From the IMG/VR virus record IMGVR_UViG_3300017647_000011, positions 1 through 31,161 of that record: a DNA stretch of 31,161 bases; one strand, written 5' to 3'. This DNA comes from a virus (Duplodnaviria > Caudoviricetes). Shown here piece by piece: positions 3,870 to 22,620 of this stretch. The notes under the pieces are model-generated. The model was not told the origin of the DNA. It ran no database searches and was given only the letters and a program-made list of their open reading frames with translations. Position numbers and translations under genes: made by a program. Numbering within the stretch: position 1 is the stretch's first letter; every line of letters starts with the position of its first letter.

Positions 3870-6725
3870 TTGGCTCTCGGTCAGATCCGTGGCCAGATGA
3901 TCCTGGATGTACAGCAGGCTCTGGCCGCGTACACATCCGTTCGTCTTGCCCATCTGAACACCGTTACCGCCCTTGCAACGGGCGGAGGCGCGATCATGGG
4001 TGTGGGAACCCTGGTAGCCGGAGCCGGTGTCGCCATGGGTGCCGGCATCATGGTCGCGGTGAACGCGGCCGGTGAGTTCGAGCGCAAGCTGGACTACTTC
4101 CTGGCGGTCTCTGGCGCCACTCAGGAAGAGTACGACGCGATCCGGGTTGAGGCGCTGCGCCTGGGTCAGGACACGATCTACTCCGCCGACCAGATTGCTG
4201 AGTCTTTCGTAGAGCTCGGCAAGGCGGGTGTCTCGGCCCAGGATATCATCAATGGTATTGGCGAGGGAGTCGCCAACCTCGGTGCGGCAGCGGATATTCC
4301 GCTTGACACTGCGGCAACGATCCTCATGTCCGCAGTCCAGACCTTCGGTCTTGGCGCGGATGAGGCAGTCGGGGTTGCGGACCGGCTTGCCGGCGCAGCC
4401 AATGCGTCCATTATTGAGGTCGAAGACCTGGGTGTCTCCCTGAAGTATGCCGGTGGTGTTGCGGCATCTCTCGGTATCCCCTTCGAAGATGTTAACACCG
4501 CACTTGCTCTGCTCGGTACGTACGGTATCCGCGGCTCGACCGCTGGTACCTCACTTCGGCAGATGCTGGTGTCCCTGAGCGGGAGTACGAAGAAGGCTCG
4601 AGACACTCTCGAGGAACTGGGCATCATCACCGAAGATGGAGCTAACCAGTTCTTTAACGCCGATGGGTCGGCCAAGTCGCTCGCTGAGATTTTCCAGGTC
4701 TTGCAGGACGCGACTGCTGGGCTGAACGAGGAGCAGCGACTTTCTGCGCTTCGGAGCATCTTTCAGAACCGAGCTCTGGCCTCGGCCATTGCACTCACCA
4801 CTGAGGGTGCTGATGGATTCGCCGAGATGGCTGCTGCCATCGAGCAAACTACTGCTGCCGATGTCGCGAGCCAGCGACTCGACAACCTCTCTGGTGACAT
4901 CGAGATCCTTCGGGGTAACATCGAGACCCTGATGATCACCAGCGGTTCTACGCTGCAAGACTTCTTCCGCGGCCTCGTCCAGGGCGCGACTGAAGCTCTT
5001 CAGTGGTTCCAGAACCTGGGTGAGGGTACACAGGCATTCATCCTCAAGGCCGCTTTGGTAGTCTCGGTCTTGATGGTGGTCGTGGGTGTCTTCGGAGTCT
5101 TTGCGGGCTCCCTACTCAACATCATTGGCTTGATTATCAGGCTTAAGGATGCCGCTGTACTCTTCAGCGCTCTGAGCAAGGCGATCAAGGGAGCAGCGGC
5201 AGCTCAGTGGCTCCTCAATGGCGCCTTTCTCGCAAACCCCATTACGTGGATCATCATTGGCATTGTCGCCCTCATCGCGGCATTCATCCTCCTCTGGAAC
5301 AATTGCGAGGGCTTCCGGAACTTCTTCATCAAGCTCTGGGAGCACATCAAGGCAGCCGCTGCTGCGGTCTGGGAGTGGTTCCTCAACCTGCCTAGCTGGT
5401 TCAGCAACCTCTGGAACTCGATCTCATCGACCGCCTCCTCGGTGTGGAATAGCATCATCCTGTTCTTCGGCTCGATCCCGGGTCGCATCACTGCTTTCTT
5501 CTCCACCATTGGTACTTTCTTCACGAACCTCTGGAACAACATCGTCAACTGGGCAGTGACGACTTGGAACAGCTTTCTTACCTTTGTGGCGGCCTTGCCT
5601 GGTAGGATCGGTGCCTTCTTTGCTGAGCTGCCTGGTTTGCTAGGCTACTGGATCGGTTTCGCCATTGGCACCATTCTGCGACTCCTCTACGAGGCAGCAG
5701 TCACCATTGGTGAAGCAGTAGTGGCGATCGTCACTGCAGTAATCACCTGGTTCTCAGAGCTGCCTGCACGGGTTGGGGCCATCTGGCAATCCATGGTGGA
5801 CTGGGTGATGAACATCCTCATTCCATGGGTTGCTCAGGTGATCGAGTCGGCTGGGAACGTGGTCACCTCGATCTTGCAGTGGTTTGCTTCACTGCCTGGT
5901 CGGGCTGCTACCTTCTTCAGCAACATGGTCTCGAGAATTATCAGCTGGCTTCGTAATGCTTGGGATGCTGCGAAGACCTATGGTCAGCGAGTGGTGGATG
6001 GGTTCATCAGCTTCATCCGCAACCTGCCGTCTCGAGTTGCTACCTTCTTTACCACCCTGTACAACAACATTCGGAACAAGCTCACTGACGCCTGGAACAA
6101 GGCTAAGGAGATGGGCCGGAATATCCGAGATGGCATTGTCAATGTTATCAACGGGTTGCCTGGCACAGTTCGGGGTATCTTCGACCGAGTAGTCCAGGCG
6201 ATCAAGGACAAGATCAGCTCGGCATTCAACGCAGTCCACGACTTTGCTAGCGGGCTCTGGGAGGGCTTTAAGGACGGTCTGGGCATTGCTTCGCCCTCGT
6301 ACATCGAGCACGCGATGTGGGCGATTACGGACGTTCTGGACACCGAAACGGACCGCATGGCTGGCATGGTTAGGCGGATTCAGGGTCTGGGTAACAACAT
6401 TAGCGAGGTCGGTAATCATCTTGGCGAGGGTTTCGGAAGCTCGCTAAACGAGGGGCTGCGCACGATGCGCTCGTCGCTGCATGAAGCTCGCACGATGAGC
6501 GACCAGCTCGTCGCCCTAAACGCCGCGAATCAGCTATCGGGTGATATCACCGCGACGCAAAGTGGCGGAACGCTGGGAGTGCTTTCAACCGGTTCCGGCG
6601 TCACCAACAATTACTACGACATGGGTGACGTCATGATTCCCGTAGAGGACCTGGAAGAGGTTAAGACAGTGAAGGATGTGTTCGATACCGTACAGCGGTC
6701 GGCACGGCAGCGAGGGGGTAACTGA
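3870..6725 (+). CDS. Tape measure protein
   Basis: 951 aa; TP901-type core (ELGKAG, GIRGSTAGTSLR, RLDNLSGD); LANPITWII TM segment; W/F repeats; AGGAGG SD with TTG start. Confidence 0.95.
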   Translation: MALGQIRGQMILDVQQALAAYTSVRLAHLNTVTALATGGGAIMGVGTLVAGAGVAMGAGIMVAVNAAGEFERKLDYFLAVSGATQEEYDAIRVEALRLGQDTIYSADQIAESFVELGKAGVSAQDIINGIGEGVANLGAAADIPLDTAATILMSAVQTFGLGADEAVGVADRLAGAANASIIEVEDLGVSLKYAGGVAASLGIPFEDVNTALALLGTYGIRGSTAGTSLRQMLVSLSGSTKKARDTLEELGIITEDGANQFFNADGSAKSLAEIFQVLQDATAGLNEEQRLSALRSIFQNRALASAIALTTEGADGFAEMAAAIEQTTAADVASQRLDNLSGDIEILRGNIETLMITSGSTLQDFFRGLVQGATEALQWFQNLGEGTQAFILKAALVVSVLMVVVGVFGVFAGSLLNIIGLIIRLKDAAVLFSALSKAIKGAAAAQWLLNGAFLANPITWIIIGIVALIAAFILLWNNCEGFRNFFIKLWEHIKAAAAAVWEWFLNLPSWFSNLWNSISSTASSVWNSIILFFGSIPGRITAFFSTIGTFFTNLWNNIVNWAVTTWNSFLTFVAALPGRIGAFFAELPGLLGYWIGFAIGTILRLLYEAAVTIGEAVVAIVTAVITWFSELPARVGAIWQSMVDWVMNILIPWVAQVIESAGNVVTSILQWFASLPGRAATFFSNMVSRIISWLRNAWDAAKTYGQRVVDGFISFIRNLPSRVATFFTTLYNNIRNKLTDAWNKAKEMGRNIRDGIVNVINGLPGTVRGIFDRVVQAIKDKISSAFNAVHDFASGLWEGFKDGLGIASPSYIEHAMWAITDVLDTETDRMAGMVRRIQGLGNNISEVGNHLGEGFGSSLNEGLRTMRSSLHEARTMSDQLVALNAANQLSGDITATQSGGTLGVLSTGSGVTNNYYDMGDVMIPVEDLEEVKTVKDVFDTVQRSARQRGGN

Positions 6726-9700
6726 TGGCTATCACCTGGGGTGCCGGCGACGGTAGCGGCTACGGTATCTTCTACGTCGGCATCGACTACTCCATCAGCG
6801 GTACTTCGGTCACCGTTCGTTACTACGTTCGGACTGAGGCCAACTCGGTCAACGACACCCAGAAGCTTACCTTCTACGGTAAGATCTCAGGCAGCAAGTC
6901 GTTCACCATGAACACCCCGAACATGGGTGCTCAGTTGGTCCACACCGCTAGCTTCACGGGTTCTCGTGGGTCGAGTTACACGGTCAGTGCATCGCTCTCT
7001 GGTACGTACTCGGGGGGTACGCCGAGTCATAGCCGGACGATCACCATCCCCGCGGTTGAGCCGTCCAAGCCGGGTACCCCGTCGGTCTCATCGATCACGA
7101 GTAATGGGGCGAAGGTCACTTGGTCTGCCCCAACGAACAACGGTGGCTCATCCATCAAGCGGTATCAGGTCTCGTTCTCTGAGAGCTCGTCGTTCTCCAA
7201 CGACGATCGGGCCTATACGACCTCGCGCTCGTACACGTCGACGAGCCGTGCTCCGAACAAGACCTACTGGGTTCGAGTTCGGGCTGAGAATGGAGTAGGC
7301 TGGTCTGGTTGGTCAGGTTCTCGATCGTTTAAGACCAAGCCGAGTACTCCTTCGGCACCCAGCAGTGTCTCGGTCTCTCGGACTAACGACACACGCCAGG
7401 TCATTAGCTGGAACCGCAACAATACAAGCGGGGCCCCGTACGACAACCTATACGTCGAGCGCTGGGATAGTGTCACTAACTCGTACTCGGTCAGGGCAAC
7501 ATTGTCGGGGTCGGCCTCGTCTTACACTGACACGGGTACGGTGGCAAACCGTCGCTATCGATACCGCGTTCGTGCCAAGAACTCGTCGGGGTACTCGAGC
7601 TACGGCTACAGCAACTACATCAGCACAACTCCGCTGCCGCCCACCAATGTCAAGGCGACTAAGAGCGGCGGCAATATCGTCCTGACTTGGTCGATTCCCG
7701 AAGACACGGGCGGTGACGGCCCGGGCAATGGCATCGAGATCTGGCATGCCACCGATGGGGTGTGGGATGGGACTGCTTTGGCTGTCCTAAACACCATGGC
7801 AACGACCTACACACATCTGTCGGTCAACAATGCCGTCACTCACACCTACCGGCTGAAGACTCGGGCGACCAAGGATACGCCCAACCTCTATTCCGCATAC
7901 TCGTCACCATCCAACACGGTTCAGCTGCTGGCGCCTCCTTTGGCACCAACAGTCATCTCGCCGGCGGATGGCTCGGTGTACGCGGATGATGGCAGCGGTG
8001 AGACGGTTGTCACCTGGCAACATAACCCGGTCGACACCACGGACCAGACCAAGTTCGAAGTTCAGTGGCGAGCCAACGAGGATGTCGAGTGGCAGACCAG
8101 CGGCGAGATTGAGTCGACCGAGTCCAGCTACATCATTCCCGACCTGAGTCACGAACAGACATGGGTCTGGCGAGTGAGGACTTGGGGTGAGTACGCTGAC
8201 CCCTCGCCGTTCAACGTGGCCTCGACCTTCACGGTCTCTTCGCCGCCTACGGTGGACTGGGTCTCTCCGGTCGATGAGGACATTATCAACCTCGCGTCGG
8301 TCACCGCGGAGTGGTTGTACTCGGACCCCGATGGTACGGCTCAGACAGGCTGGGAGGTCGAACTTTGGCAGGATGACCAGCGTCTCGAACATCAGTCGGG
8401 AGATGATGACTCGACCCTGGTCCCCATGGAGACTCAGCTACAGAACGAGGTTCAGTACGAGCTCCGAGTTCGAGTTCGTGATGAGGCTCCGCTGTGGTCT
8501 GACTGGGTCTCGGTGTTCTTCACAACCGACTTCCTCAAGCCCGCGGGCGCGACCATCATCGGCAACTACAACCGAGATGATGGCAGCATGGGCATCACTA
8601 TCAACAACCAGGTGGTGGTGGGGGCTCCAGATACGGTTTACAACGAGGTCTGGGTCTCGGAAGACCCAAGTCTCCACACGCTCTACGAGGCTTGGGAAGA
8701 GGCGGTCATCAACGCCGGTCCGACGATCACGTACACCTGGCTGGGAACTGCCAATATGTCGCCCTCGGTGGAGACTATTGATGGCCTCGTGACCCGCACA
8801 AACGTCCTGCTAAGGCCACAGCCGAACCCGCCCGATGGTGTGGGAGGCTGGGCCACTTCAAACTCGACTCGGTACGTCTCGAGTTTTGATGAGGGAGCGG
8901 GACCTGAGGGTCATCCTGCGCTGATGGTGGAACGAACTACGGAGTCGCCGAACAACATCATTGCCGACGTCTATGCTATCGGTAGTACTGATACTTCCAC
9001 AAGTGTTGAGCACCTGACTGAGGTACTTCCCGATACTCAGTATACCGCGTCCGTCTACCTGAAGAGTGGGCTCGCCGCGTGGCGAAGCTGGATGTATATT
9101 TACTGGTATGATGGTACGGGTACACTGATCTCGAATCCTGAGACTGGTTGGGTGGACCAAGAAGGCAGTGACTGGACTCGGATCAGCATGACTGAGACTT
9201 CGCCGGCCGGAGCAGCCTACGCTCGACTGAGGGTCTTCGTGGGTACGACCGGTGGTAATATTATCGGCGGTGAGACGGCCTGGGTGGCTGACGCCCAGCT
9301 CGAGGAGGGGCCCGATGTTACCCCCTTCTTTACTGGCGACAGCATTAACCAGGCCACCGAGGAAGTTCAGAACGCCCGTCAGGCGCTTGAGGCCGCCTGG
9401 CGAAGCACGGCTCGACTGTTGGCTACGGACCTCGACCTGAACACGACCATCACTTACGATCTGCCTCGGCTCGGCGTGAACAGCTATTACCGAGTAATCA
9501 CCGCGAGCGACCTGCCCTCTTACAACGAGGGGGCGATCGTACCGCTGATGGCCGGACCGACTCATGGCTGGATGTTCCTTAATGGAGGTCCCGACTTCAC
9601 CCAGTCGGTTCGCCTGCGAGCTGAGCTGAAGATCGGTCGCACGCAGTCTCGGGAGAAGACCTACAACCGATACAAGGGGCGGCCGAAGCCCATCCCGACG

Positions 9701-14253: not shown

Positions 14254-14283
14254 TTGACGCGGTTTAAACGAGGCATATATAAT
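14254..14283 (+). promoter_or_regulatory. SigA-type promoter TTGACG-N18-TATAAT (probably leaderless transcript)
   Basis: ATG 14291 follows a 7-nt gap after the -10. Confidence 0.75.
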
Positions 14284-14656: not shown

Positions 14657-16185
14657 AGTACCGTTGGAAGAAACGGCCCTACAAGCACCAGGTTGCCGCG
14701 GTAAAGAACTTGCTAGCTCGTGGCTGGGGCGGTGCCCTGCTCATGGAACCTCGGACAGGCAAGACAAAGGTGGCTATTGACTACCTCTCTATCCTGCATA
14801 TGCAAGGGAAGGTGAACCGGGTTCTCGTGATCGGCCCTATCGTCGCCCTTGCGGTGTGGGAACAGCAACTTGCCGAGAACTGCCCCGTGAACTACCACAT
14901 CACGAAGTGGGACCGTAAGGGTCGGAAGAAGGAGCCTCTGCCGAAGTATGGCAAGGATAGGCTCGACATCGTGCTGATGAATTACGACGCATTCTCCACA
15001 CCGGGGGAGTGGCGAACCGACCGGAAGGGGAACCTGATCCTCGACCCTGCTGGCAAGCCGATTCGCTCACGCAGTAAGGGTGGACGATACGACGTCAAGA
15101 AGCAGATCAAACTCTGGCAGCCTCAGATGATCATTCTGGATGAGAGCCACCGAATCAAGACGCCCTCTGCCAAGAAGACCACTGCAATCTTGTCTCTTAG
15201 GGATATCCCAGAGTATAGACTGATCCTGACTGGAACGGTGGTGACCAAGAGCAAGCGACTCTTCGATGTCTACGCTCAGTGGAAGTTCCTGAACCCACAG
15301 CGATTCGCGGGGATGACCTTTGCCGACTTCAAGGCAAACTACGGGCGATGGCTCCCTCGAGAGAAGTACTCTCAGTGGATAGGTAATCGAAACGAAGATG
15401 ACCTCCATGCAAGGATTCACCTCGACAGCTTCAGTGTGACTCGAGAAGAGTGTTATGATCTACCGGAGCAGACAGTTCAGATCATCCCAGTAGAACTTGA
15501 GGAGAGCGCCCCAGTCTACGACCAGATGGCTGAGGACATGGTCGCTCGCATCCACACAGGTGAGATTACGGAGGCGTCAATTCGTCTTGTTCAGCGACTC
15601 AGGCTTCAGCAGATCACCTCAGGGTTGGCCACGACTATGCCCTCCCCGGAGCATCCGAAGGGTCAGCTGCGTATTATCGGGGCGGAAAAGCTGCGGATGA
15701 TTGAGAGCCGCCTGGAAGACCTTATGGAAGCCGATGAGAAGGTCGTCATCGGTGCACTATTCAAGGCGGACATCAGTCGACTGCAGCAACTCTGCCAGAA
15801 GATGAAGGTCCCATACTTCACTATCAGGGGCGGGATGAAGGACAGTGAACGCGAGTACGCATGGAAGCAATTCCCGAAGGTTCGCGGAGGTGCGGTCTTC
15901 ATTGGCCAGCCCGCAGCTGCTGGTGAGGCTATCGATCTTAGCTGTGCTTCTATCCTACAGTGGTATAGCCTGCCTTCCAGCTGGGTGAACTTCCGTCAGT
16001 TCTCTGATCGCATCGCACTCAGCGATAAGCCGACGTTCCATGAGTTCTACCTTGCTCGAGGTACCATTGATGAACTAATGAAGGAAACGTTGGATGAAGA
16101 CGGCGACATTGGCAAGGCCATGATCTCAAGCCCCGACCGTCTGCTGCGCATGAACGCGGCTTTGACATCTCGCAATTCTGAGTGA
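14653..16185 (+). CDS. SNF2-like / DExH-box helicase
   Basis: Q motif PYKHQ, Walker A MEPRTGKT, ILDESH, LTGT; C-terminal domain AAGEAIDL. Confidence 0.9.
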   Translation: MKYRWKKRPYKHQVAAVKNLLARGWGGALLMEPRTGKTKVAIDYLSILHMQGKVNRVLVIGPIVALAVWEQQLAENCPVNYHITKWDRKGRKKEPLPKYGKDRLDIVLMNYDAFSTPGEWRTDRKGNLILDPAGKPIRSRSKGGRYDVKKQIKLWQPQMIILDESHRIKTPSAKKTTAILSLRDIPEYRLILTGTVVTKSKRLFDVYAQWKFLNPQRFAGMTFADFKANYGRWLPREKYSQWIGNRNEDDLHARIHLDSFSVTREECYDLPEQTVQIIPVELEESAPVYDQMAEDMVARIHTGEITEASIRLVQRLRLQQITSGLATTMPSPEHPKGQLRIIGAEKLRMIESRLEDLMEADEKVVIGALFKADISRLQQLCQKMKVPYFTIRGGMKDSEREYAWKQFPKVRGGAVFIGQPAAAGEAIDLSCASILQWYSLPSSWVNFRQFSDRIALSDKPTFHEFYLARGTIDELMKETLDEDGDIGKAMISSPDRLLRMNAALTSRNSE

Positions 16186-16191
16186 TAATAT
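16162..16191 (+). promoter_or_regulatory. Promoter TTGACA-N18-TAATAT for the nucleotide-metabolism cluster
   Basis: Direct match overlapping the helicase stop. Confidence 0.65.
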
Positions 16192-16216
16192 TACCACGTA
16201 GAGAAAAGAGGTTGCC

Positions 16217-16801
16217 ATGATCATCTTGGAAGGCCCAGATGGCGCGGGCAAGACTACGTTGCTGTCGGAGCTACAACAGCACTTCGGTTTCCCCGTCGCC
16301 GATCGTGTGGTCAGCAAGGATGCCGAAGCGATGGTCGATCTCCAGAGCTGGGTCGAACAGAACGTTCGACAGGGGTTCCAGGAGATGTTCTTCGATCGTC
16401 ACCGTCTGGTGAGTGAGTTCATTTACGGCCCCGTACTGCGACGACATGCAGAGCCTGGTTTCACAGACGTGGGCTGGACTGGGGCGATGCTGCAGCTGTT
16501 CTACCACATCCGACCGGTGGTGATCTACTGCCTGCCTCCGCTTCAAGTGGTCAAGGACAACCTCCGAGGCGATCCCGACAACGAACGAGTCAACCCACAC
16601 ATCGAGTCGATCTATCAGGCATATCTTCAGCGAGCTTGGATGGATCGCATGATCAACCCTTACTCGGCCATCTATGACTACACCACTGACGGTCAGGAGG
16701 AGGATCACCTCAAGTACTACATCGACCTGATCAACGAAGCTCTCAGGTATGCTAAGTACCGGGCTTCGATCAACGCCAAGTACACCCCCATCGAAAGGTA
16801 A
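16217..16801 (+). CDS. dNMP (thymidylate-kinase-like) kinase
   Basis: IILEGPDGAGKTT P-loop; FDRH..SEFIYG. Confidence 0.85.
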   Translation: MIILEGPDGAGKTTLLSELQQHFGFPVADRVVSKDAEAMVDLQSWVEQNVRQGFQEMFFDRHRLVSEFIYGPVLRRHAEPGFTDVGWTGAMLQLFYHIRPVVIYCLPPLQVVKDNLRGDPDNERVNPHIESIYQAYLQRAWMDRMINPYSAIYDYTTDGQEEDHLKYYIDLINEALRYAKYRASINAKYTPIER

Positions 16802-16805
16802 TAGC

Positions 16806-17294
16806 ATGGTAGGAGACAAGCTCGACCAGATGTTCCATCTCCAGGGCATCCTGCAGCGCGACACGTACGGCGCTCACCCTGCCGAGATCGAGGACATCGA
16901 GGAGCGAATCCAGTTCTATAAGGACATGCACGTAGCCATCGTCGACGAGCTTCACGAGGCGCTCGCTGAGATCGGTTGGAAGCCCTGGGCAACCTCGCGA
17001 CACATCAACGAGGACGCGGTGAAGGGCGAGCTGGTGGATGCCTTTCACTTCTTCATGAACCTCTGTATGCTGGTCGGCATGACTCCGGAGGAGCTCACGA
17101 GGAGATACGTGCTCAAGCGGGAGAAGAATATCAAGCGCCAGCAGGATGGCTACGATGGGGTCTCGAGCAAGTGCGTTGGGTGTGGGAGGGCGCTTGACGA
17201 TGACGCAGTGACCTGTCGAATCTCGGACAATGGGCGATACGCATACTGCTATGCGGCGTCTGACGGATCTCACAGGACGTTCACACTCTCATGA
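16806..17294 (+). CDS. All-alpha (dimeric) dUTPase/dCTPase-family pyrophosphatase with Cys-rich tail
   Basis: DELHEALAEIGWKPW and ELVDAFHF motifs; KREKNIKRQQDGY; C-terminal CVGC...C...C. Confidence 0.85.
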   Translation: MVGDKLDQMFHLQGILQRDTYGAHPAEIEDIEERIQFYKDMHVAIVDELHEALAEIGWKPWATSRHINEDAVKGELVDAFHFFMNLCMLVGMTPEELTRRYVLKREKNIKRQQDGYDGVSSKCVGCGRALDDDAVTCRISDNGRYAYCYAASDGSHRTFTLS

Positions 17295-17413
17295 AGAAGC
17301 CGATCGATCAGGGTCGACTCGTAGGCCTGATTCTTGCTTGGGCCTTGTCTGCTCTCGTTATCTCTCTCATTATTCTCGCCATCGTCAAGATCTGGAGCTG
17401 GATTCTTTCATGA
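17291..17413 (+). CDS. 40-aa single-TM membrane peptide (not in ORF track)
   Basis: MKKPIDQGRLVGLILAWALSALVISLIILAIVKIWSWILS; ATGA overlaps at both ends. Confidence 0.7.
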   Translation: MKKPIDQGRLVGLILAWALSALVISLIILAIVKIWSWILS

Positions 17414-18441
17414 GAACATACACTGCACCCACTCTGACCGAGCTGCACGACCAGATGTGCAAGTCCCTGGTCTTCGCTTACGAGGATGAGCTGGACATGG
17501 TCACTTCAGTGGATGTTCAGATTCATGATGTGGTCGCTCGAGCCGAGTCGATGGCTTGGGATTTCGACCTGAAGTCAATGTGGCTCACCAAGAGTCGCTG
17601 GTCGATGATGGTCCGTCAGTATATCGATGCCGAAGACCTCGAAGCCTGGATCGGTCAGTGCACCGGGAAGATCGGTCTTCGTGGACGAGGCATTGCTGTC
17701 ATGCGAACCAAGAACGTCAAGCCCCGAGGTGGAGCTGCTACCGGCCACAGCAACAAGGAGACCCGCCGATGGGGCTCATGTATGCTGAACATCTCGTACA
17801 AGGCTCTACCAACTCCTCAGATCACACTTCACTCACGCACTTCCTACCTCGGCTACATCGGGGCACTCGACCTCTCGGTCGCCTGGATGTGTGGAGTCTA
17901 CCTCGCCAAGGAGATGGGATGCAAGGTAGAGGACTTCGCCTTCGTCTGGCACAACGAAGCGATCCAATGGCACAACTTCAAGTCGCTTGCTTTCCTGCTC
18001 AATTACCCTGGTAGCGACGAGGATCGGGAACAGTACCGACGGTTCCTGATGTCACCCTCGAGCGAACTGACTAGGGACGAAAAGCGACTCATCCTCGAGT
18101 CACCTGGTCTTCGACTGTCGAGGAAGTGGCTTGCCAAGGTGCTGAAGGAGGACGCTGCCGGCCTGACCTATGGCGACATGACGTACAACACCTATCGTCG
18201 AATCCGCCGCAGGTTCCACACCGAAGTGCTCGGCTACGAGCGAGCCAAGGACTTCGAGGGCTGGTCCTACTACAAGCAGGGCCCGAAGGAAGGACAGCAG
18301 AAGGAGTACTTCAAGGCCTATCAGTTGCTACCCCATACACGAGTTGATAGCCTTGATTTCTCGCCGATTGGCATGCCGAAGAGCCGCAAGTACGGCGAGG
18401 CCTTCGTTGGAGGCTGGGAAGAAGAAGATGACGATGAGTAG
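17410..18441 (+). CDS. Divergent thymidylate-synthase-fold protein
   Basis: GSCMLNISY...ITLHSRTSYLGYIGALD aligns by eye to the TS core PC....F.....L....RS.D.......N/D; start by ATGA coupling. Confidence 0.55.
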   Translation: MRTYTAPTLTELHDQMCKSLVFAYEDELDMVTSVDVQIHDVVARAESMAWDFDLKSMWLTKSRWSMMVRQYIDAEDLEAWIGQCTGKIGLRGRGIAVMRTKNVKPRGGAATGHSNKETRRWGSCMLNISYKALPTPQITLHSRTSYLGYIGALDLSVAWMCGVYLAKEMGCKVEDFAFVWHNEAIQWHNFKSLAFLLNYPGSDEDREQYRRFLMSPSSELTRDEKRLILESPGLRLSRKWLAKVLKEDAAGLTYGDMTYNTYRRIRRRFHTEVLGYERAKDFEGWSYYKQGPKEGQQKEYFKAYQLLPHTRVDSLDFSPIGMPKSRKYGEAFVGGWEEEDDDE

Positions 18442-18664
18442 AATTGCTGCCTACCACTCAACACGAGTGACAGCGACGCAGTACTCACTGACAGTGAGAC
18501 ATCTCAAGCAACTGATGGACTTTGTCGCTCAGCACGGGCTATCCCCCGACCAAAGAGTGGAGGTTCATCTCGAGCAATCGTACAACCACCCCACTGACCC
18601 CGGCGGGAGGCTTAGCCTTGAGATCGAGATCGCGGTCGACTCGGAGGGCAAGGTAATCCGATGA
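18428..18664 (+). CDS. Hypothetical protein
   Basis: Overlaps both neighbours; start 18428 or 18434. Confidence 0.6.
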   Translation: MTMSRIAAYHSTRVTATQYSLTVRHLKQLMDFVAQHGLSPDQRVEVHLEQSYNHPTDPGGRLSLEIEIAVDSEGKVIR

Positions 18665-19491
18665 TCCACCTGGTGCAGGCGGACGATTTCTCAGAAGCGT
18701 TCCTGACGCTCCGCAATCGGCTACTTGATGTCAAACCACTCAAGGCGGGTCGCTGGCAATCGAGGGACGTCTCTGAGCTGCCTCAGGGCACGACTTACGA
18801 ACTCGCGAACGTGACGATCGTGATGGGCCTGCCGCAGACGGCACACCACCTGGCGATGCAGACTCGAGCTCACTTACCCTGGGCTGAGGATCACTTTCAG
18901 GAGCGCGTCAGTCGAGAGCCGCTGAACCCCGCGCCGAGCGAAGCGTGGTGGCCATTCGCCCAGAAGAAGGAAGGCACCACCAACACGGATCATCGCATGG
19001 GCGAGAAGTTTTCCCACACCTACCCCGAGCGAATCTGGCCGAAGCATGCTCAGGGATCAATTGCTTCCAATCAACGCATGAAGGTCTACAACAACATGCG
19101 GGGGATCCGATTCGACTATGGTGATCTCGACGATGTGATCCACCTACTACACGAGGATCCGACCACCCGCCAGGCATACCTGCCCATCTGGTTCCCCGAA
19201 GACACGGGGGTGCATCACGGGCAGCGGGTGCCTTGCACACTGGGGTATCACTTCATGATCCGCGAGGATAAGCTCCAGATCACATACTACATGCGCTCCT
19301 GTGATCTGGTTCGTCACTTCCAGGATGACGTCTACATGGCAGGTCGCCTGGCCCAGTGGGTACGAGATGAGTTGAACAACCGGCGAGGCAAGGTGGAACT
19401 CGAGGTCGGAGAGCTTATCATGCACATTGTCTCGCTACATATCTTCGGGGGCGATGTTCCAATCATCGAAGCTAAGGGAGATGAGTGGTGA
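18661..19491 (+). CDS. Thymidylate synthase family enzyme, dCMP (hydroxy)methylase-like
   Basis: DPTTRQA, VPCTLGYHF, YMRSCDLVRHFQDD (Asp at Asn177-equivalent), SLHIF. Confidence 0.85.
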   Translation: MIHLVQADDFSEAFLTLRNRLLDVKPLKAGRWQSRDVSELPQGTTYELANVTIVMGLPQTAHHLAMQTRAHLPWAEDHFQERVSREPLNPAPSEAWWPFAQKKEGTTNTDHRMGEKFSHTYPERIWPKHAQGSIASNQRMKVYNNMRGIRFDYGDLDDVIHLLHEDPTTRQAYLPIWFPEDTGVHHGQRVPCTLGYHFMIREDKLQITYYMRSCDLVRHFQDDVYMAGRLAQWVRDELNNRRGKVELEVGELIMHIVSLHIFGGDVPIIEAKGDEW

Positions 19492-19598
19492 TGGAGTACT
19501 GCTGCGAACCAAACTCGGGTAGTTGCTGTGGCCCAGGGTCTTGGTGCTGTAGTCGAGCGGGAGAACATGCTCATCCTGAGCTGGAGGGCGATGAGTAA
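19491..19598 (+). CDS. 35-aa peptide with three Cys-Cys pairs (not in ORF track)
   Basis: MEYCCEPNSGSCCGPGSWCCSRAGEHAHPELEGDE; TGATG and TAATG overlaps; AAGGGAG upstream. Confidence 0.6.
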   Translation: MEYCCEPNSGSCCGPGSWCCSRAGEHAHPELEGDE

Positions 19599-20065
19599 TG
19601 AATGGGCGTATCACTCGGGATGACATGCTGATGAATGTGGCTCGTATCTTCGCACTGCGAGGTACGTGTACTAGGCTGCGAGTGGGGGCAGTCTTTAGTA
19701 GAGATGGTCGGATCATCGTTACTGGCTACAATGGAGCCCCTGCTGGCATGCCTCACTGCGACCACACCTGTGATTGTCTCGAAGAGGAGGGTCATCATGA
19801 GAGCTGTCGATCTGTACAACCGTGCATGATCGCCGAACATGCTGAGCGTAATGGGGTGGCCTATGCTGCGCGGCTCGGTCTTGCGCTCGAGGGAAGTACT
19901 CTGCATGTGACTCACGCCCCCTGCTATGAGTGCGCTCGGTCGATCGTCAATGCAGGTGTGGAGAGGGTGATCTTCGCGGAATACTATCGATCAGAGGCGG
20001 GATTGGAACTCATGCGACAGGGTGGGCTAGTCGTAGTTTACAAGCCTACCGAGGATCGCATATAA
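19598..20065 (+). CDS. dCMP deaminase
   Basis: TC.RLRVGAV, TGYNGAP, HAE.N and APCYEC zinc motifs. Confidence 0.92.
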   Translation: MNGRITRDDMLMNVARIFALRGTCTRLRVGAVFSRDGRIIVTGYNGAPAGMPHCDHTCDCLEEEGHHESCRSVQPCMIAEHAERNGVAYAARLGLALEGSTLHVTHAPCYECARSIVNAGVERVIFAEYYRSEAGLELMRQGGLVVVYKPTEDRI

Positions 20066-20066
20066 T
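20037..20066 (+). promoter_or_regulatory. Promoter TTTACA-N18-TATAAT for the polymerase (leaderless if start is 20074)
   Basis: Direct match; ATG 20074 follows a 7-nt gap after the -10. Confidence 0.6.
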
Positions 20067-22620
20067 GGGTGGCATGACTCGCCTGCCCCTCTCGGTGATT
20101 CGCAACCCCTATTGTAAGGGGTGTCGACTTCGCGATACTGCAGATGTAATCTGCGAACTAGGCTTCGGGAACGAGCAAGCTGATGTCATGGTCGTCAGCA
20201 AGATGCCTAATTCCGACAACTATCAGCGAGACCTCGAGGTTCAGCTCGAGCGAGTAGGCTTGGATATCACGAACGTCTACTGGGCACACGCTAGTAAATG
20301 CAAGACATTTGAGGTTAGTCCGACAACGAAAGAGATCAAGGTCTGCGCTACGGACTACCTCGAGAAGGAGATTGCTCACGTCAAGCCGAAGTATATCCTC
20401 GCTCTCGGTAATGAAGCGCTGATTGCTACTGCCGGCAAGACGGGGATCACCAAGTACCGAGGTCGAGTTCTCAAGCGACCTGATGGTATCGAGGTGATCG
20501 GCACTGTCTCACCCTCGGCCGTGAAGCGAAACCCAGGCCAGATGCCAGCATATCTCGCTGACCTTCGACTCTTCGCCAACAAAGTTAAGGGTCGTAAGTC
20601 GGGCATTGATTCGCCGAAGTGGCTCTACGTCAAGACCAAGGATGATCTGCGTAAGGTCAAGAAGGCACTCAAGTATACGACAAGGATCTTCTTCGACATC
20701 GAAACTGTCGGAGTATACTACGAGCCAGATGCCAGGATCGTATCGATTGCTGCAGTATGCGAGATCGAGAAGGATGATAAGCGAGGATACTTCGTCTTCG
20801 CCATTCCACTCAGCCACCATCAGTCACCCTTCAGAAATGCCTGGAAGTCGATCCTACGCTTCCTGAAGCCTGAACTTGAGGCGATCCCTCGAGTTGTTGC
20901 GCACAACTCTTCGTACGACTGCAAGTGGATGCAGTACTTCGGTATCAACATGGAGCCGACCTTCGATACCATGTTGGCCATTGCGATCCTCGATGAGAAC
21001 ATCCAGAAGGGGCTGAAGCCGCAAGCGATGGCTCGGCTAGGTGTGGAGCCGTGGGGCATCGACACGAAGTCGCTGGATTCACAGGACATCGCTGACATCC
21101 TCGAGTATAACATGCTCGATACCTGGTACATGTATCACGTCTACAAGCAGCTGGTCGAAGAGCTGAAGGCAGAGCCGAGGCTTGCCAAGATCTTTATGAA
21201 GCTGACGATGCCCGCACAGCGCGAGTTGATCCCAACAGAGATCCGAGGAATTTGGATTGATGTACAGCGGCTCAAGGATCGCAAGCCGATAGCCGAACAG
21301 AGGTTGATCGAGATCGAGCAGCGAATTCGTGACGCGGCTAATTTGCCAAGCCCCGATAGCGACCACTGGCCGGCTCGGTACAAGCAACTGAAGTCGGGGC
21401 CAAAGCGTATGCCCCTGGCTGAGAATTTCAATGCCTCGATGTTCGCCCGATGGATGCTCTTCGAGTGGTGCGGGCTACCAGTCATCGAGCGGGGCAAGGA
21501 AAAGGCTGATGGTTCACCGGGCGACCCGAGCATGGCCGAAGGTGTCCTTATGGCGCTCAAGAATGAGCATCCAGTGGTGCCTCATATGCTCGAGCGAGTG
21601 ACGGCGAACAAGCACATCTCCTCATTCTTCAACCCCTACTCTGAGCTCTACGACGAAGAGCATCGAATCCACACCAACTTCAAACTAGCGGGTACGGTCA
21701 CGGGTAGATTGAGCTCGGGCAAGGATGATGCCGATAAGATCACTGGTTCTCGAGGTGATCGGAAAGGCGTAAATCTACAACAGGTACCTCGTGACCCATT
21801 CATCCGAGGGCTGTTCGGGGCACCACCGGGCTGGACATTCGTTGAAGCTGACTACTCCCAGATCGAACTGAGGGTGGCAGCATATCTCGCCGACGAGACG
21901 AACATGAAGCATATCTATGCAACAAACGGTGATATCCACACCATTACCGCTGCTCGCGTTGCCGGCATCCCCGAGTCTCAGGTCGAGAAGGAAGTTCGGA
22001 AGAAGCTAGGTAAGCCGGTCAACTTCGGCTTTCTCTATGGAATGGGTTGGCGCAAGTTCATCCAAACCGCATTCGAGAACTACGGCGCAGAGTTTACTGA
22101 AGACGAGGCACAAGGCGCACGAGAGACATACTTCCGCCTCTACCCGAAGCTCTTGCCCTGGCACGCTCGACAGCGACGCTTGGTGAATAAGTACGGTAGG
22201 GTGCAGAGCCCTCTGGGACGCATCAGGCATCTCCCCGATATCTACTCGCCTGATCAATCGGTGCGCAATGAGGCGGAGCGCCAGGCGATCAACAGCCCAG
22301 TTCAAGGCTTTGCCTCGGATCTCGCGGTATTCTCGATGATCCACATTAATCGAGAGTTCAGGCGACTCAACCTTGCTGCGCATTGTATCGGCCTTGTGCA
22401 TGATGCTATCAACTACGAGGTCAGGGATGACCACCTGGCACAGGCATTGCCGATCATCAAGGATACCATGGAGGATATGCTCCTCCTGGAGAAAGAATTC
22501 GGGGTACATGTAGATATCCCGATTGTAGCTGACCTCGCAGTGGGGCAGCACTGGGGTGACAAGACCGAGCTCACTCCCGACCAGGTATACGACTTCAGAA
22601 TGGAGTACAAAGGTGAATGA
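20065..22620 (+). CDS. polA: Family A DNA polymerase with N-terminal UDG family-4-like domain and 3'-5' exonuclease
   Basis: Exo motifs FDIET, HNSSYD, YNMLD; TGRLSS; motif A ADYSQIELR; motif B RKKLGKPVNFGFLYG; motif C VHDA; N-terminal CKGC.L...G.GN..ADV; start 20065 or 20074. Confidence 0.95.
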   Translation: MGGMTRLPLSVIRNPYCKGCRLRDTADVICELGFGNEQADVMVVSKMPNSDNYQRDLEVQLERVGLDITNVYWAHASKCKTFEVSPTTKEIKVCATDYLEKEIAHVKPKYILALGNEALIATAGKTGITKYRGRVLKRPDGIEVIGTVSPSAVKRNPGQMPAYLADLRLFANKVKGRKSGIDSPKWLYVKTKDDLRKVKKALKYTTRIFFDIETVGVYYEPDARIVSIAAVCEIEKDDKRGYFVFAIPLSHHQSPFRNAWKSILRFLKPELEAIPRVVAHNSSYDCKWMQYFGINMEPTFDTMLAIAILDENIQKGLKPQAMARLGVEPWGIDTKSLDSQDIADILEYNMLDTWYMYHVYKQLVEELKAEPRLAKIFMKLTMPAQRELIPTEIRGIWIDVQRLKDRKPIAEQRLIEIEQRIRDAANLPSPDSDHWPARYKQLKSGPKRMPLAENFNASMFARWMLFEWCGLPVIERGKEKADGSPGDPSMAEGVLMALKNEHPVVPHMLERVTANKHISSFFNPYSELYDEEHRIHTNFKLAGTVTGRLSSGKDDADKITGSRGDRKGVNLQQVPRDPFIRGLFGAPPGWTFVEADYSQIELRVAAYLADETNMKHIYATNGDIHTITAARVAGIPESQVEKEVRKKLGKPVNFGFLYGMGWRKFIQTAFENYGAEFTEDEAQGARETYFRLYPKLLPWHARQRRLVNKYGRVQSPLGRIRHLPDIYSPDQSVRNEAERQAINSPVQGFASDLAVFSMIHINREFRRLNLAAHCIGLVHDAINYEVRDDHLAQALPIIKDTMEDMLLLEKEFGVHVDIPIVADLAVGQHWGDKTELTPDQVYDFRMEYKGE

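Follow-up and report, generated by a model that had tools for sequence, protein, structure and literature searches.

A phage gene cassette with two thymidylate synthase-fold proteins and its possible role in making a modified cytosine

The window analyzed here is a 31-kb virus record (IMG/VR record IMGVR_UViG_3300017647_000011, 31,161 nucleotides), estimated to be 52% complete, with tail genes at its left and replication genes at its right. Between 16217 and 22620, a nearly gapless run on a single strand contains six enzyme genes and ends in a family A DNA polymerase (Table 1). Two of these genes, designated TS1 and TS2, encode proteins assigned to the fold of thymidylate synthase (TS), and it is the function of this pair, together with the kinase, pyrophosphatase, deaminase, and polymerase around it, that is considered here. 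All six genes were found at the positions given in the initial annotation, which had also described the cluster as promoter-led and tightly coupled. The coupling is in fact tighter than had been claimed: three small open reading frames (ORFs) occupy the gaps, and all junctions downstream of the kinase overlap. (The open frame that holds the 76-aa ORF, 18413-18661, has no match in Pfam or PHROG.) As for the promoter, a promoter-like site does precede the kinase, but a second lies just before the polymerase, and the 8 promoter-like sites of the window are only weak evidence when set against the 5.1 +/- 2.3 seen in shuffled sequences. Five sites of near-consensus sigma-70 type, at 14254, 16162, 20037, 22897, and 23156, stand in step before the early and replication genes.

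Table 1. Features of the cassette region, in window coordinates
Feature	Position	Strand	Basis
Promoter-like site TTGACA-16-GATAAT, upstream of kinase	16162..16189	+	consensus match only
P-loop (d)NMP kinase, 194 aa	16217..16801	+	PHROG 761, E 8e-19
All-alpha dCTPase/dUTPase, 162 aa, T4 gp56-like	16806..17294	+	Pfam dUTPase_2 PF08761, E 1.9e-14
Hydrophobic ORF, 40 aa, overlaps both flanking genes (ATGA)	17291..17413	+	
TS2, divergent predicted TS-fold protein, 343 aa, helical C-terminal extension	17410..18441	+	fold model, conservation; PHROG 13667 (unknown function)
ORF of 76 aa separating TS2 and TS1	18434..18664	+	
TS1, Asp177-type TS homolog, 276 aa	18661..19491	+	PF00303, E 1.1e-8
Cys-rich ORF, 35 aa, overlaps both flanking genes	19491..19598	+	
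dCMP-family deaminase, 155 aa	19598..20065	+	PF00383, E 2.1e-19
Promoter-like site TTTACA-18-TATAAT, upstream of polymerase	20037..20066	+	consensus match only
Family A DNA polymerase: N-terminal UDG-family domain (PF03167, E 4.3e-10) and 3'-5' exonuclease	20065..22620	+	

TS1 is a member of the TS superfamily: it matches PF00303 above the cut-off, finds solved TS-fold structures with Foldseek at E 1e-13, and keeps the catalytic residues. The motif RSCDLVRHFQDD begins at 19294, and codon 19327 is GAC, specifying Asp223. Alignment places this residue opposite Asn177 of E. coli ThyA, as the initial annotation had stated, and opposite Asp179 of T4 gp42. Other residues of interest are Arg189 (ThyA Leu143), Cys192, Asp215, Arg218, and His219 (ThyA Gly173). 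Across 58 family sequences, the equivalents of Glu58, Arg126', Cys146, Arg166, Asp177, and His207 (ThyA numbering, used below for comparisons among families) are invariant, as are an arginine at the Leu143 position and another at Leu172. The Gly173 position is occupied by His, Tyr, or Phe, and position 167 is mostly Ser (53/58). According to the available part of PMC13326640, Asp177 goes with the use of dCMP, Asp or Glu at 143 with a hydroxymethyl product, and Asn169 with a hydroxy product. TS1 obeys the first of these rules and neither of the other two. With Asp177 in 58/58 it differs from canonical ThyA, which has Asn, and from the dUMP hydroxymethylases of the ViI/SPO1 type, given that the ST-W77 enzyme also has Asn here; at position 143 it has Arg throughout, and at position 169 Asp (57/58) or Glu (1/58), so that the Asn169 marker of the 5-hydroxycytosine synthases is absent. 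The rule for position 143 is a loose one, as the Xp12-type enzymes carry Asn there. The initial annotation had offered 5-hydroxymethylcytosine and hydroxycytosine among the possible products, and the absence of both markers narrows these options.

In a tree of 25 rows, TS1 forms a clade of its own (support 99/98) that is separate from ThyA and the Xp12-type enzymes, from gp42, from RB69 gp48, and from the ViI-type enzyme, which is the outcome of the phylogeny that the initial annotation had called for; the reference set, translated from sequence records, is small, and the deeper branching is unresolved. The TS proteins of phages Bosa and PaMx28 cluster with ThyA (95/89). The possibility that TS1 is an orthologue of gp42 was dropped, given an identity of 22% and the separate clade. 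Among solved structures, the best matches of TS1 by both profile and fold are the flavin-dependent dCMP hydroxylase (9IQC/9IQU) and then MilA, with a small margin between them in the Foldseek search of the PDB (E 1e-13 vs 3e-12). Furthermore, the C-terminal tail past His207 comprises only 16 residues in TS1 (family median, 25), compared with 57 in ThyA and 63 in Bosa and PaMx28. A short tail and independence from dihydrofolate reductase (DHFR) are given as hydroxymethylase traits in the available part of PMC5175136.

TS2 is a more divergent protein. It has no Pfam match, belongs to a PHROG of unknown function, lacks sequence similarity to TS1 (hhalign profile comparison, probability 0.6%), and has a profile without a sequence match in the PDB; the assignment of its fold rests on a predicted model (pLDDT 90.9). 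Of 48,161 chains compared with this model, just 7 scored above Z 5, all of them TS-fold (Z 16.0 to 10.0), while the next, unrelated chain scored Z 4.4. Residues 1-201 make up the TS-fold part and align best with 9IQC (Z 16.0, root-mean-square deviation 3.8, 188 residues aligned), followed by MilA (Z 13.3), ThyA (12.2), and T4 dCH (10.0), and TS matches were obtained in BFVD too. As modeled, then, TS2 has a TS fold. Beyond this part lies a further helical region that contains a conserved Arg264 (109/119), and a fold search with this C-terminal extension gave nothing above Z 3.1.

By motif spacing, Cys124, Arg143, and Asp154 of TS2 correspond to ThyA Cys146, Arg166, and Asn177. In an alignment of 119 rows, consisting of the window protein and the 118 full-length proteins among 150 matches listed (mostly 50%-cluster representatives), Arg143 is found in 119/119, Cys124 in 118/119 (with one gap), and Asp154 in 116/119 (with three Glu), and TS2 thus departs from canonical ThyA at position 177 as TS1 does. 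With these residues near-invariant, TS2 hardly resembles an inactive subunit. Variation is seen at the equivalents of Glu58, Asp169, Gly173, His207, and Tyr209; in particular, the His207/Tyr209 pair for a free 3'-OH is not conserved, position 169 is Tyr or Glu and Asn in 0/27, and the equivalent of Arg126' is Arg in only 63/119. This pattern fits an enzyme that may still form a cysteine adduct to activate a cytosine nucleotide but may have lost the standard folate chemistry.

A search with TS1 at E 1e-5 reached 204 phage records, 106 of them over at least 80% of its length. TS2 matches 85 GenBank records, all actinophages, including Muddy, Triscuit, Shrew, and the Gordonia CT phages. The closest relatives are Curtobacterium phage Shrew and Microbacterium phages Huwbert and Triscuit (63-70% for TS2, 47-50% for TS1). 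The same gene order is present in Muddy, GTE2, Yersinia phage P744, and Brevundimonas phage Polewnik, and the kinase-dUTPase-TS2-TS1 portion of it in Clostridium phage Clo-PEP-1; outside the actinophages, the core is found in phages infecting Proteobacteria and Clostridium. In the non-actinobacterial phages, the gene that precedes TS1 is beyond the reach of BLAST, yet its product contains the Cys...Arg...Asp motif; the window TS2 is matched by Foldseek to an uncharacterized protein of Pseudomonas phage PMBT14 (E 3e-7), a phage with such a gene. Across carriers the TS1 and TS2 genes are adjacent or nearly so. In addition, the best tblastn relatives of the polymerase are cassette-carrying phages, indicating that the cassette travels with one polymerase lineage. 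The announcement of phage Emalyn (PMC4982278) names gp46 as ThyX; the protein is a ThyA-fold homolog of the TS1 family, 46% identical to TS1, and ThyX (PF02511) was not found in GTE2, a relative of Emalyn.

The main result on TS2 is that another gene takes its place in other lineages. In an initial set, 7 of the 63 TS1 loci with enough upstream DNA were without TS2, and in 5 of these 7, an asparagine-synthetase-like glutamine amidotransferase (PF00733 and PF13537) adjoins TS1. In wider scans, in which 415 loci were reduced to 240 distinct TS1 cores, TS2 lies beside 143, the amidotransferase beside 62, both beside none, and neither beside 35. When only the 146 loci with long flanks are considered, the corresponding numbers are 100, 36, 0, and 10. 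As the loci were fetched by TS1, TS2, and amidotransferase queries, the counts do not reflect how common each arrangement is in nature; the broad TS2 profile also drew part of its seed from the same loci, although 34 of 41 non-seed loci matched it too. Conversely, 71 of 80 amidotransferase loci contain TS1, and the remaining 9 start at most 153 nt from a contig end. The amidotransferase gene is located directly after TS1 or near it, in TS2's stead; in uncultured T4-like contigs, TS1 overlaps or abuts it, and the deaminase gene follows. The deaminase is likewise present in 135/143 TS2 loci. When 85 thinned TS1 proteins are placed on a FastTree, the amidotransferase label requires at least 5 changes, and since all 5 are forced by starred branches, the swap represents more than one event. 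Throughout, the active-site signature of TS1 is unchanged with either partner, Arg143, Arg172-His173, Asp169, and Asp177 being retained in 62/62 amidotransferase loci, with position 176 mostly Asn instead of Asp. The initial annotation had recognized a dCMP-type TS and a T4-like logic, both of which stand, but it had overlooked the swap, which points to a product made in two steps.

Other genes are also found beside TS1. A C5-cytosine-methyltransferase-like gene directly follows it in some lineages (L070:4501-5538, L072:8729-9886, L084:8765-9766), at 3 distinct loci with TS2 and 5 distinct loci with the amidotransferase. In the large phage contigs L214, L220, L222, L231, and L233, TS1 (at about 6980-7770) has neither partner within about 7 kb; L214 encodes a 557-aa ORF (4030-5703) whose N-terminus appears, by eye, carbamoyltransferase-like.

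The remaining enzymes of the cassette in part resemble those of T4. The pyrophosphatase is related to T4 gp56, as had been proposed, with 30% identity over 142 columns (E 2e-16). The kinase, which had been taken as the counterpart of T4 gp1, has no BLAST match to that protein, and the correspondence was not upheld. The deaminase is closer to D29 gp36.1 (38% identity) than to the deaminases of Bosa and PaMx28 (29-30%); selectivity for 5-methylcytosine (5mC) among such deaminases (mSCD) is a polyphyletic trait, according to the available text of bioRxiv 2024.12.05.627091. At the N-terminus of PolA, a UDG-family domain with a cysteine cluster is fused (20065-20620), and when Muddy and the Gordonia CT phages are compared with the polymerase by tblastn, the matching part begins only at about residue 107-111.

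Folate is oxidized when a TS methylates its substrate, and in the Xp12-type phages a DHFR gene is kept next to that of the deaminase. DHFR was found in 0/52 carrier genomes and in 2/2 Xp12-type controls. ThyX is present in 12/49 carrier genomes; altogether, 13/49 keep a separate dUMP-to-dTMP enzyme, whereas 36/49 show neither ThyX nor canonical ThyA. In Triscuit, a canonical Asn177 ThyA (gp67, L156:24790-25587) separates TS1 from the deaminase, which brings the TS-fold genes of that cassette to three, and the annotation of Huwbert likewise lists two TS genes side by side. Since some carriers have ThyX or ThyA, an ordinary thymidylate synthase is the probable user of the dUMP made by the deaminase, as in T4, and to this extent the T4-like logic of the initial annotation is retained. 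The idea that the TS pair is merely a DHFR-free route to dTMP was downgraded in light of the carriers with their own ThyX and of the Triscuit ThyA. The initial annotation had seen neither DHFR nor a glycosyltransferase in the window, and a Pfam scan of 28 proteins of this approximately 52% complete record likewise gave no match to either. Glycosyltransferases are rare in carriers generally (GT1 1/49, GT2 3/49), so that any elaboration of the base must come from the cassette or from unrecognized genes. In 126 ORFs chosen from parts of the relatives G001, G024, and G011 and from the left arm of Shrew, with crude ORF calls and with structural and cassette regions mostly excluded, no hypermodification enzyme was detected by Pfam. 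G001, a close relative, does have a match to Pfam Tad3, a Thoeris inhibitor (L129:8920-9465, E 2.5e-28).

Taken together, these results have led to a model, preferred but held tentatively at somewhat below even odds, in which two successive steps of the cassette yield a C5-modified cytosine nucleotide that replaces dC in the DNA; its basis is the genes, folds, residues, and co-occurrence described above. In this model, the gp56-like enzyme would cut dCTP and dUTP to their monophosphates. Cys192 of TS1 would then attack C6 of dCMP, with Asp223 reading the cytosine, and a C5 group would be added in a reaction that does not consume folate. Hydroxymethyl is the simplest guess for this group, but the invariant Arg189 and Arg218, together with His219, would allow one that is more oxidized or that bears a carboxylate. 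Next, the Cys, Arg, and Asp of TS2 would re-activate the TS1 product and convert the C5 group, probably by adding nitrogen; in lineages without TS2, the amidotransferase would do this job. Finally, the kinase and the co-inherited PolA would bring the modified nucleotide into DNA, and dUMP from the deaminase would feed a thymidylate synthase of the host or of the phage.

The simplest reading of the swap is that TS1 makes one intermediate, which is finished by either TS2 or the amidotransferase, and by inference TS2 may perform the same chemistry as its replacement. Enzymes of the asparagine-synthetase type activate their substrate with ATP and take nitrogen from glutamine, and this is why a nitrogen-bearing base is the lead. 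The specific proposal that follows, in which an undescribed nitrogen-bearing cytosine such as 5-aminomethylcytosine or the amide of a carboxylate-bearing C5 group is made at the nucleotide level, with TS2 working off folate chemistry as the equivalent of the amidotransferase, is considerably more speculative and, taken by itself, rather unlikely. The broader claim is firmer: that a modified cytosine reaches DNA by way of the cassette, whether by the two-step route or by the one-step, Xp12-type, or DNA-level routes discussed below, seems likely, even after a discount for partial use.

Indirect evidence on whether such a base resides in virion DNA comes first from site avoidance, which gives a mixed picture. 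In the window and 8 relatives (Shrew, Triscuit, and six IMG/VR records), 0-2 of 42-50 C-containing 6-mer palindromes are depleted, and the range is 0-2 of 31-50 when P744 is included. Depletion is similarly slight in T4 (1/37; range for T4, Bosa, and PaMx28, 1-3) and greater in D29 (19/41) and T7 (12/41; range with BPs, 9-19). Zero counts of CGCG and GCGC in Clo-PEP-1 were set aside as a sign of avoidance, as the expected counts are 0 and 2 and CpG is scarce. The observed/expected ratio of CpG is 0.13 in Clo-PEP-1 (L151-L153), 0.54 in P744 (L146-L147), and 0.99 in the window. A second line of evidence comes from MetaGPA, a selection for modified cytosine in which, in the available text, TS (109 vs 303 contigs) and dUTPase_2 (11 vs 23, corrected p 3.5e-10) are enriched (PMC8670742). 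In a later study, as far as its available part goes, deaminases on modified contigs adjoin TS in 104/149 cases vs 17/277 (bioRxiv 2024.12.05.627091). A link between the modified MetaGPA contigs and the TS1 family was looked for, and none was established.

Several observations weigh against the two-step model or limit it. In four carriers, palindromes are depleted to a larger extent (Muddy 9/48, Polewnik 7/44, Clo-PEP-1 6/32, GTE2 5/42), and some of the depleted sites are at zero, which full protective replacement would not require. The palindrome test is also blunt; Golden, the intended unmodified control (12/39), itself has an Asp177-type TS. Asn_synthase is not significantly enriched in the available MetaGPA results (6 vs 255; PMC8670742), and a text search of the MetaGPA supplements with five family motifs found none of them. 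In addition, 10 of the 146 well-flanked TS1 loci have neither partner, and mutual exclusion is evidence of alternative partners and not proof of shared chemistry. The residue numbering of TS2 derives from motif spacing and the fold match, with no residue-level superposition, and folate use by TS1 is left unproven by the lack of the Asp/Glu143 marker and likewise by the residue at position 173. Finally, a literature search found no DNA or enzyme measurement for any carrier and no paper characterizing the TS1-TS2 pair or carrier DNA, amidotransferase terms not being among its queries; modification of the carrier phages is not discussed in PMC4982278 or in the available parts of PMC7302621 and PMC11269248.

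Golden was dropped as a control once its TS proved to be of the Asp177 type. This Microbacterium phage of cluster EA encodes a 'thymidylate synthase' with RSMDAVWGYRAD (L159:33891-34697), near an annotated MazG gene, and phages of cluster EA may modify cytosine as well.

The strongest of the rival explanations, though an unlikely one, is that there is a single step, in which TS1 alone or a TS1-TS2 heterodimer makes 5-hydroxymethylcytosine or a flavin-derived 5-hydroxycytosine, with TS2 serving as a subunit that gives structure or supplies a cofactor. In solved TS enzymes, each active site includes an arginine contributed by the partner subunit (PMC5175136, available part). The adjacency of the two genes, the position of 9IQC as best solved match of both proteins, and the rarity of glycosyltransferases would also suit this idea. 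However, TS1 has an identical active-site signature at 62 amidotransferase loci without TS2, and TS2 retains a Cys, Arg, and Asp set of its own while failing to conserve Arg126', the residue expected of a donating partner. Furthermore, Asn169 is absent, and the lead of 9IQC over MilA in the TS1 search is small.

An improbable alternative is that the cassette reshapes the nucleotide pool, as an anti-uracil measure, for dTTP supply, or as a counter to dCTP-depleting defenses, or else that the modified nucleotide is deaminated to a modified dU, with the cytosines in DNA being mostly canonical. The depleted restriction sites of the four carriers, the near-constant deaminase, and the UDG-family domain on the polymerase are consistent with it. 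Two conserved Asp177 enzymes, a dedicated kinase, and a co-inherited polymerase nevertheless exceed what control of a pool would need, an Asp177 TS beside a deaminase marks experimentally modified contigs (in the available preprint text cited above), and there is little site depletion in the window's own clade.

It is less probable still that TS1 methylates dCMP, that 5mC replaces C, and that some of the 5mC is converted to dTMP by a deaminase selective for it, as in the Xp12 type. The neighborhood of TS, deaminase, pyrophosphatase, and PolA is that of MetaGPA contigs on which 5 of 7 tested TS proteins made 5mdCMP (bioRxiv 2024.12.05.627091, available part), and 36/49 carriers show neither ThyX nor canonical ThyA. 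Yet the absence of DHFR and of a ThyA-type tail disfavors 5-methylcytosine, one of the products proposed in the initial annotation; moreover, the TS1 clade is separate from that of Bosa, PaMx28, and ThyA, and 13/49 carriers have a separate enzyme for dTMP. Equally improbable is that TS1 acts on dCMP before replication and TS2 modifies the base later in the polymer, perhaps in limited contexts: the loss of the His207/Tyr209 pair, the helical region with Arg264, and the mixed site avoidance, which partial modification would suit, are countered by the absence of any TS-fold enzyme acting on DNA in the literature examined, the lack of a fold match for the extension, and the location of the gene among nucleotide-pool enzymes.

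Should the speculative proposal of a nitrogen-bearing cytosine hold, Muddy, a phage used in therapy, and dozens of actinophages in culture would carry an unreported non-canonical base. A new base would enlarge the known DNA alphabet, give the TS fold a further reaction, and alter the view of a therapy phage's resistance to restriction. As the cassette occurs in cultured, freely available phages, the hypothesis is directly testable, and the exchange of TS2 for the amidotransferase provides a concrete chemical lead.

Phages T4, Xp12, and RB69 define the kind of system to which the cassette is compared, one in which a TS homolog alters dCMP before replication. Like the 5hmdC pathway of T4 (gp56, gp42, gp1, cd, td), the cassette has a gp56-like pyrophosphatase, an Asp177 TS fold with a short C-terminus, a deaminase, and a kinase, and some carriers have their own dTMP synthase. 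Unlike that pathway, it has Arg rather than the Asp of gp42 at position 143 and His rather than Gly at 173, its kinase is unmatched to gp1, it includes an extra TS-fold gene, its polymerase is PolA rather than PolB, and glycosyltransferases are rare. The Xp12/PaMx74-type 5mdC module and the MetaGPA neighborhoods (composition 'Asp177 TS + deaminase + PRA-PH + PolA' in the available part of bioRxiv 10.1101/2024.12.05.627091) share with it an Asp177 TS beside a deaminase, an NTP pyrophosphatase, PolA, and a tailed phage, but the cassette is without DHFR or a ThyA tail, its TS belongs to another clade, its pyrophosphatase is of the gp56 and not the Bosa type, and TS2 is extra. The flavin 5-hydroxy-dCMP synthases (RB69 gp48, DLP3 gp80, HY126 AfhB; 9IQC/9IQU; PMC13326640, available part) are the top solved match of both proteins and resemble TS1 in the short fold, the non-Gly residue at 173, and Asp177; in place of Asn169, however, TS1 has Asp and TS2 has Tyr or Glu, and the scanned carriers show no set of sugar-transfer genes. 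MilA, a CMP hydroxymethylase (5JNH; PMC5175136, available part), shares Asp177 and Arg172 with TS1 and is its second-best structural match, but it serves an antibiotic pathway, prefers a ribonucleotide, and has Asp143, Gly173, and Ala167, where TS1 has mostly Ser167. The residues published as marks of methyl, hydroxymethyl, or hydroxy products thus place neither TS1 nor TS2 in any of these classes. A further comparison is with the uncharacterized pair of TS1 and amidotransferase in uncultured T4-like and other phages, in which the TS1 family and its signature are the same, while the partner differs and position 176 is mostly Asn.

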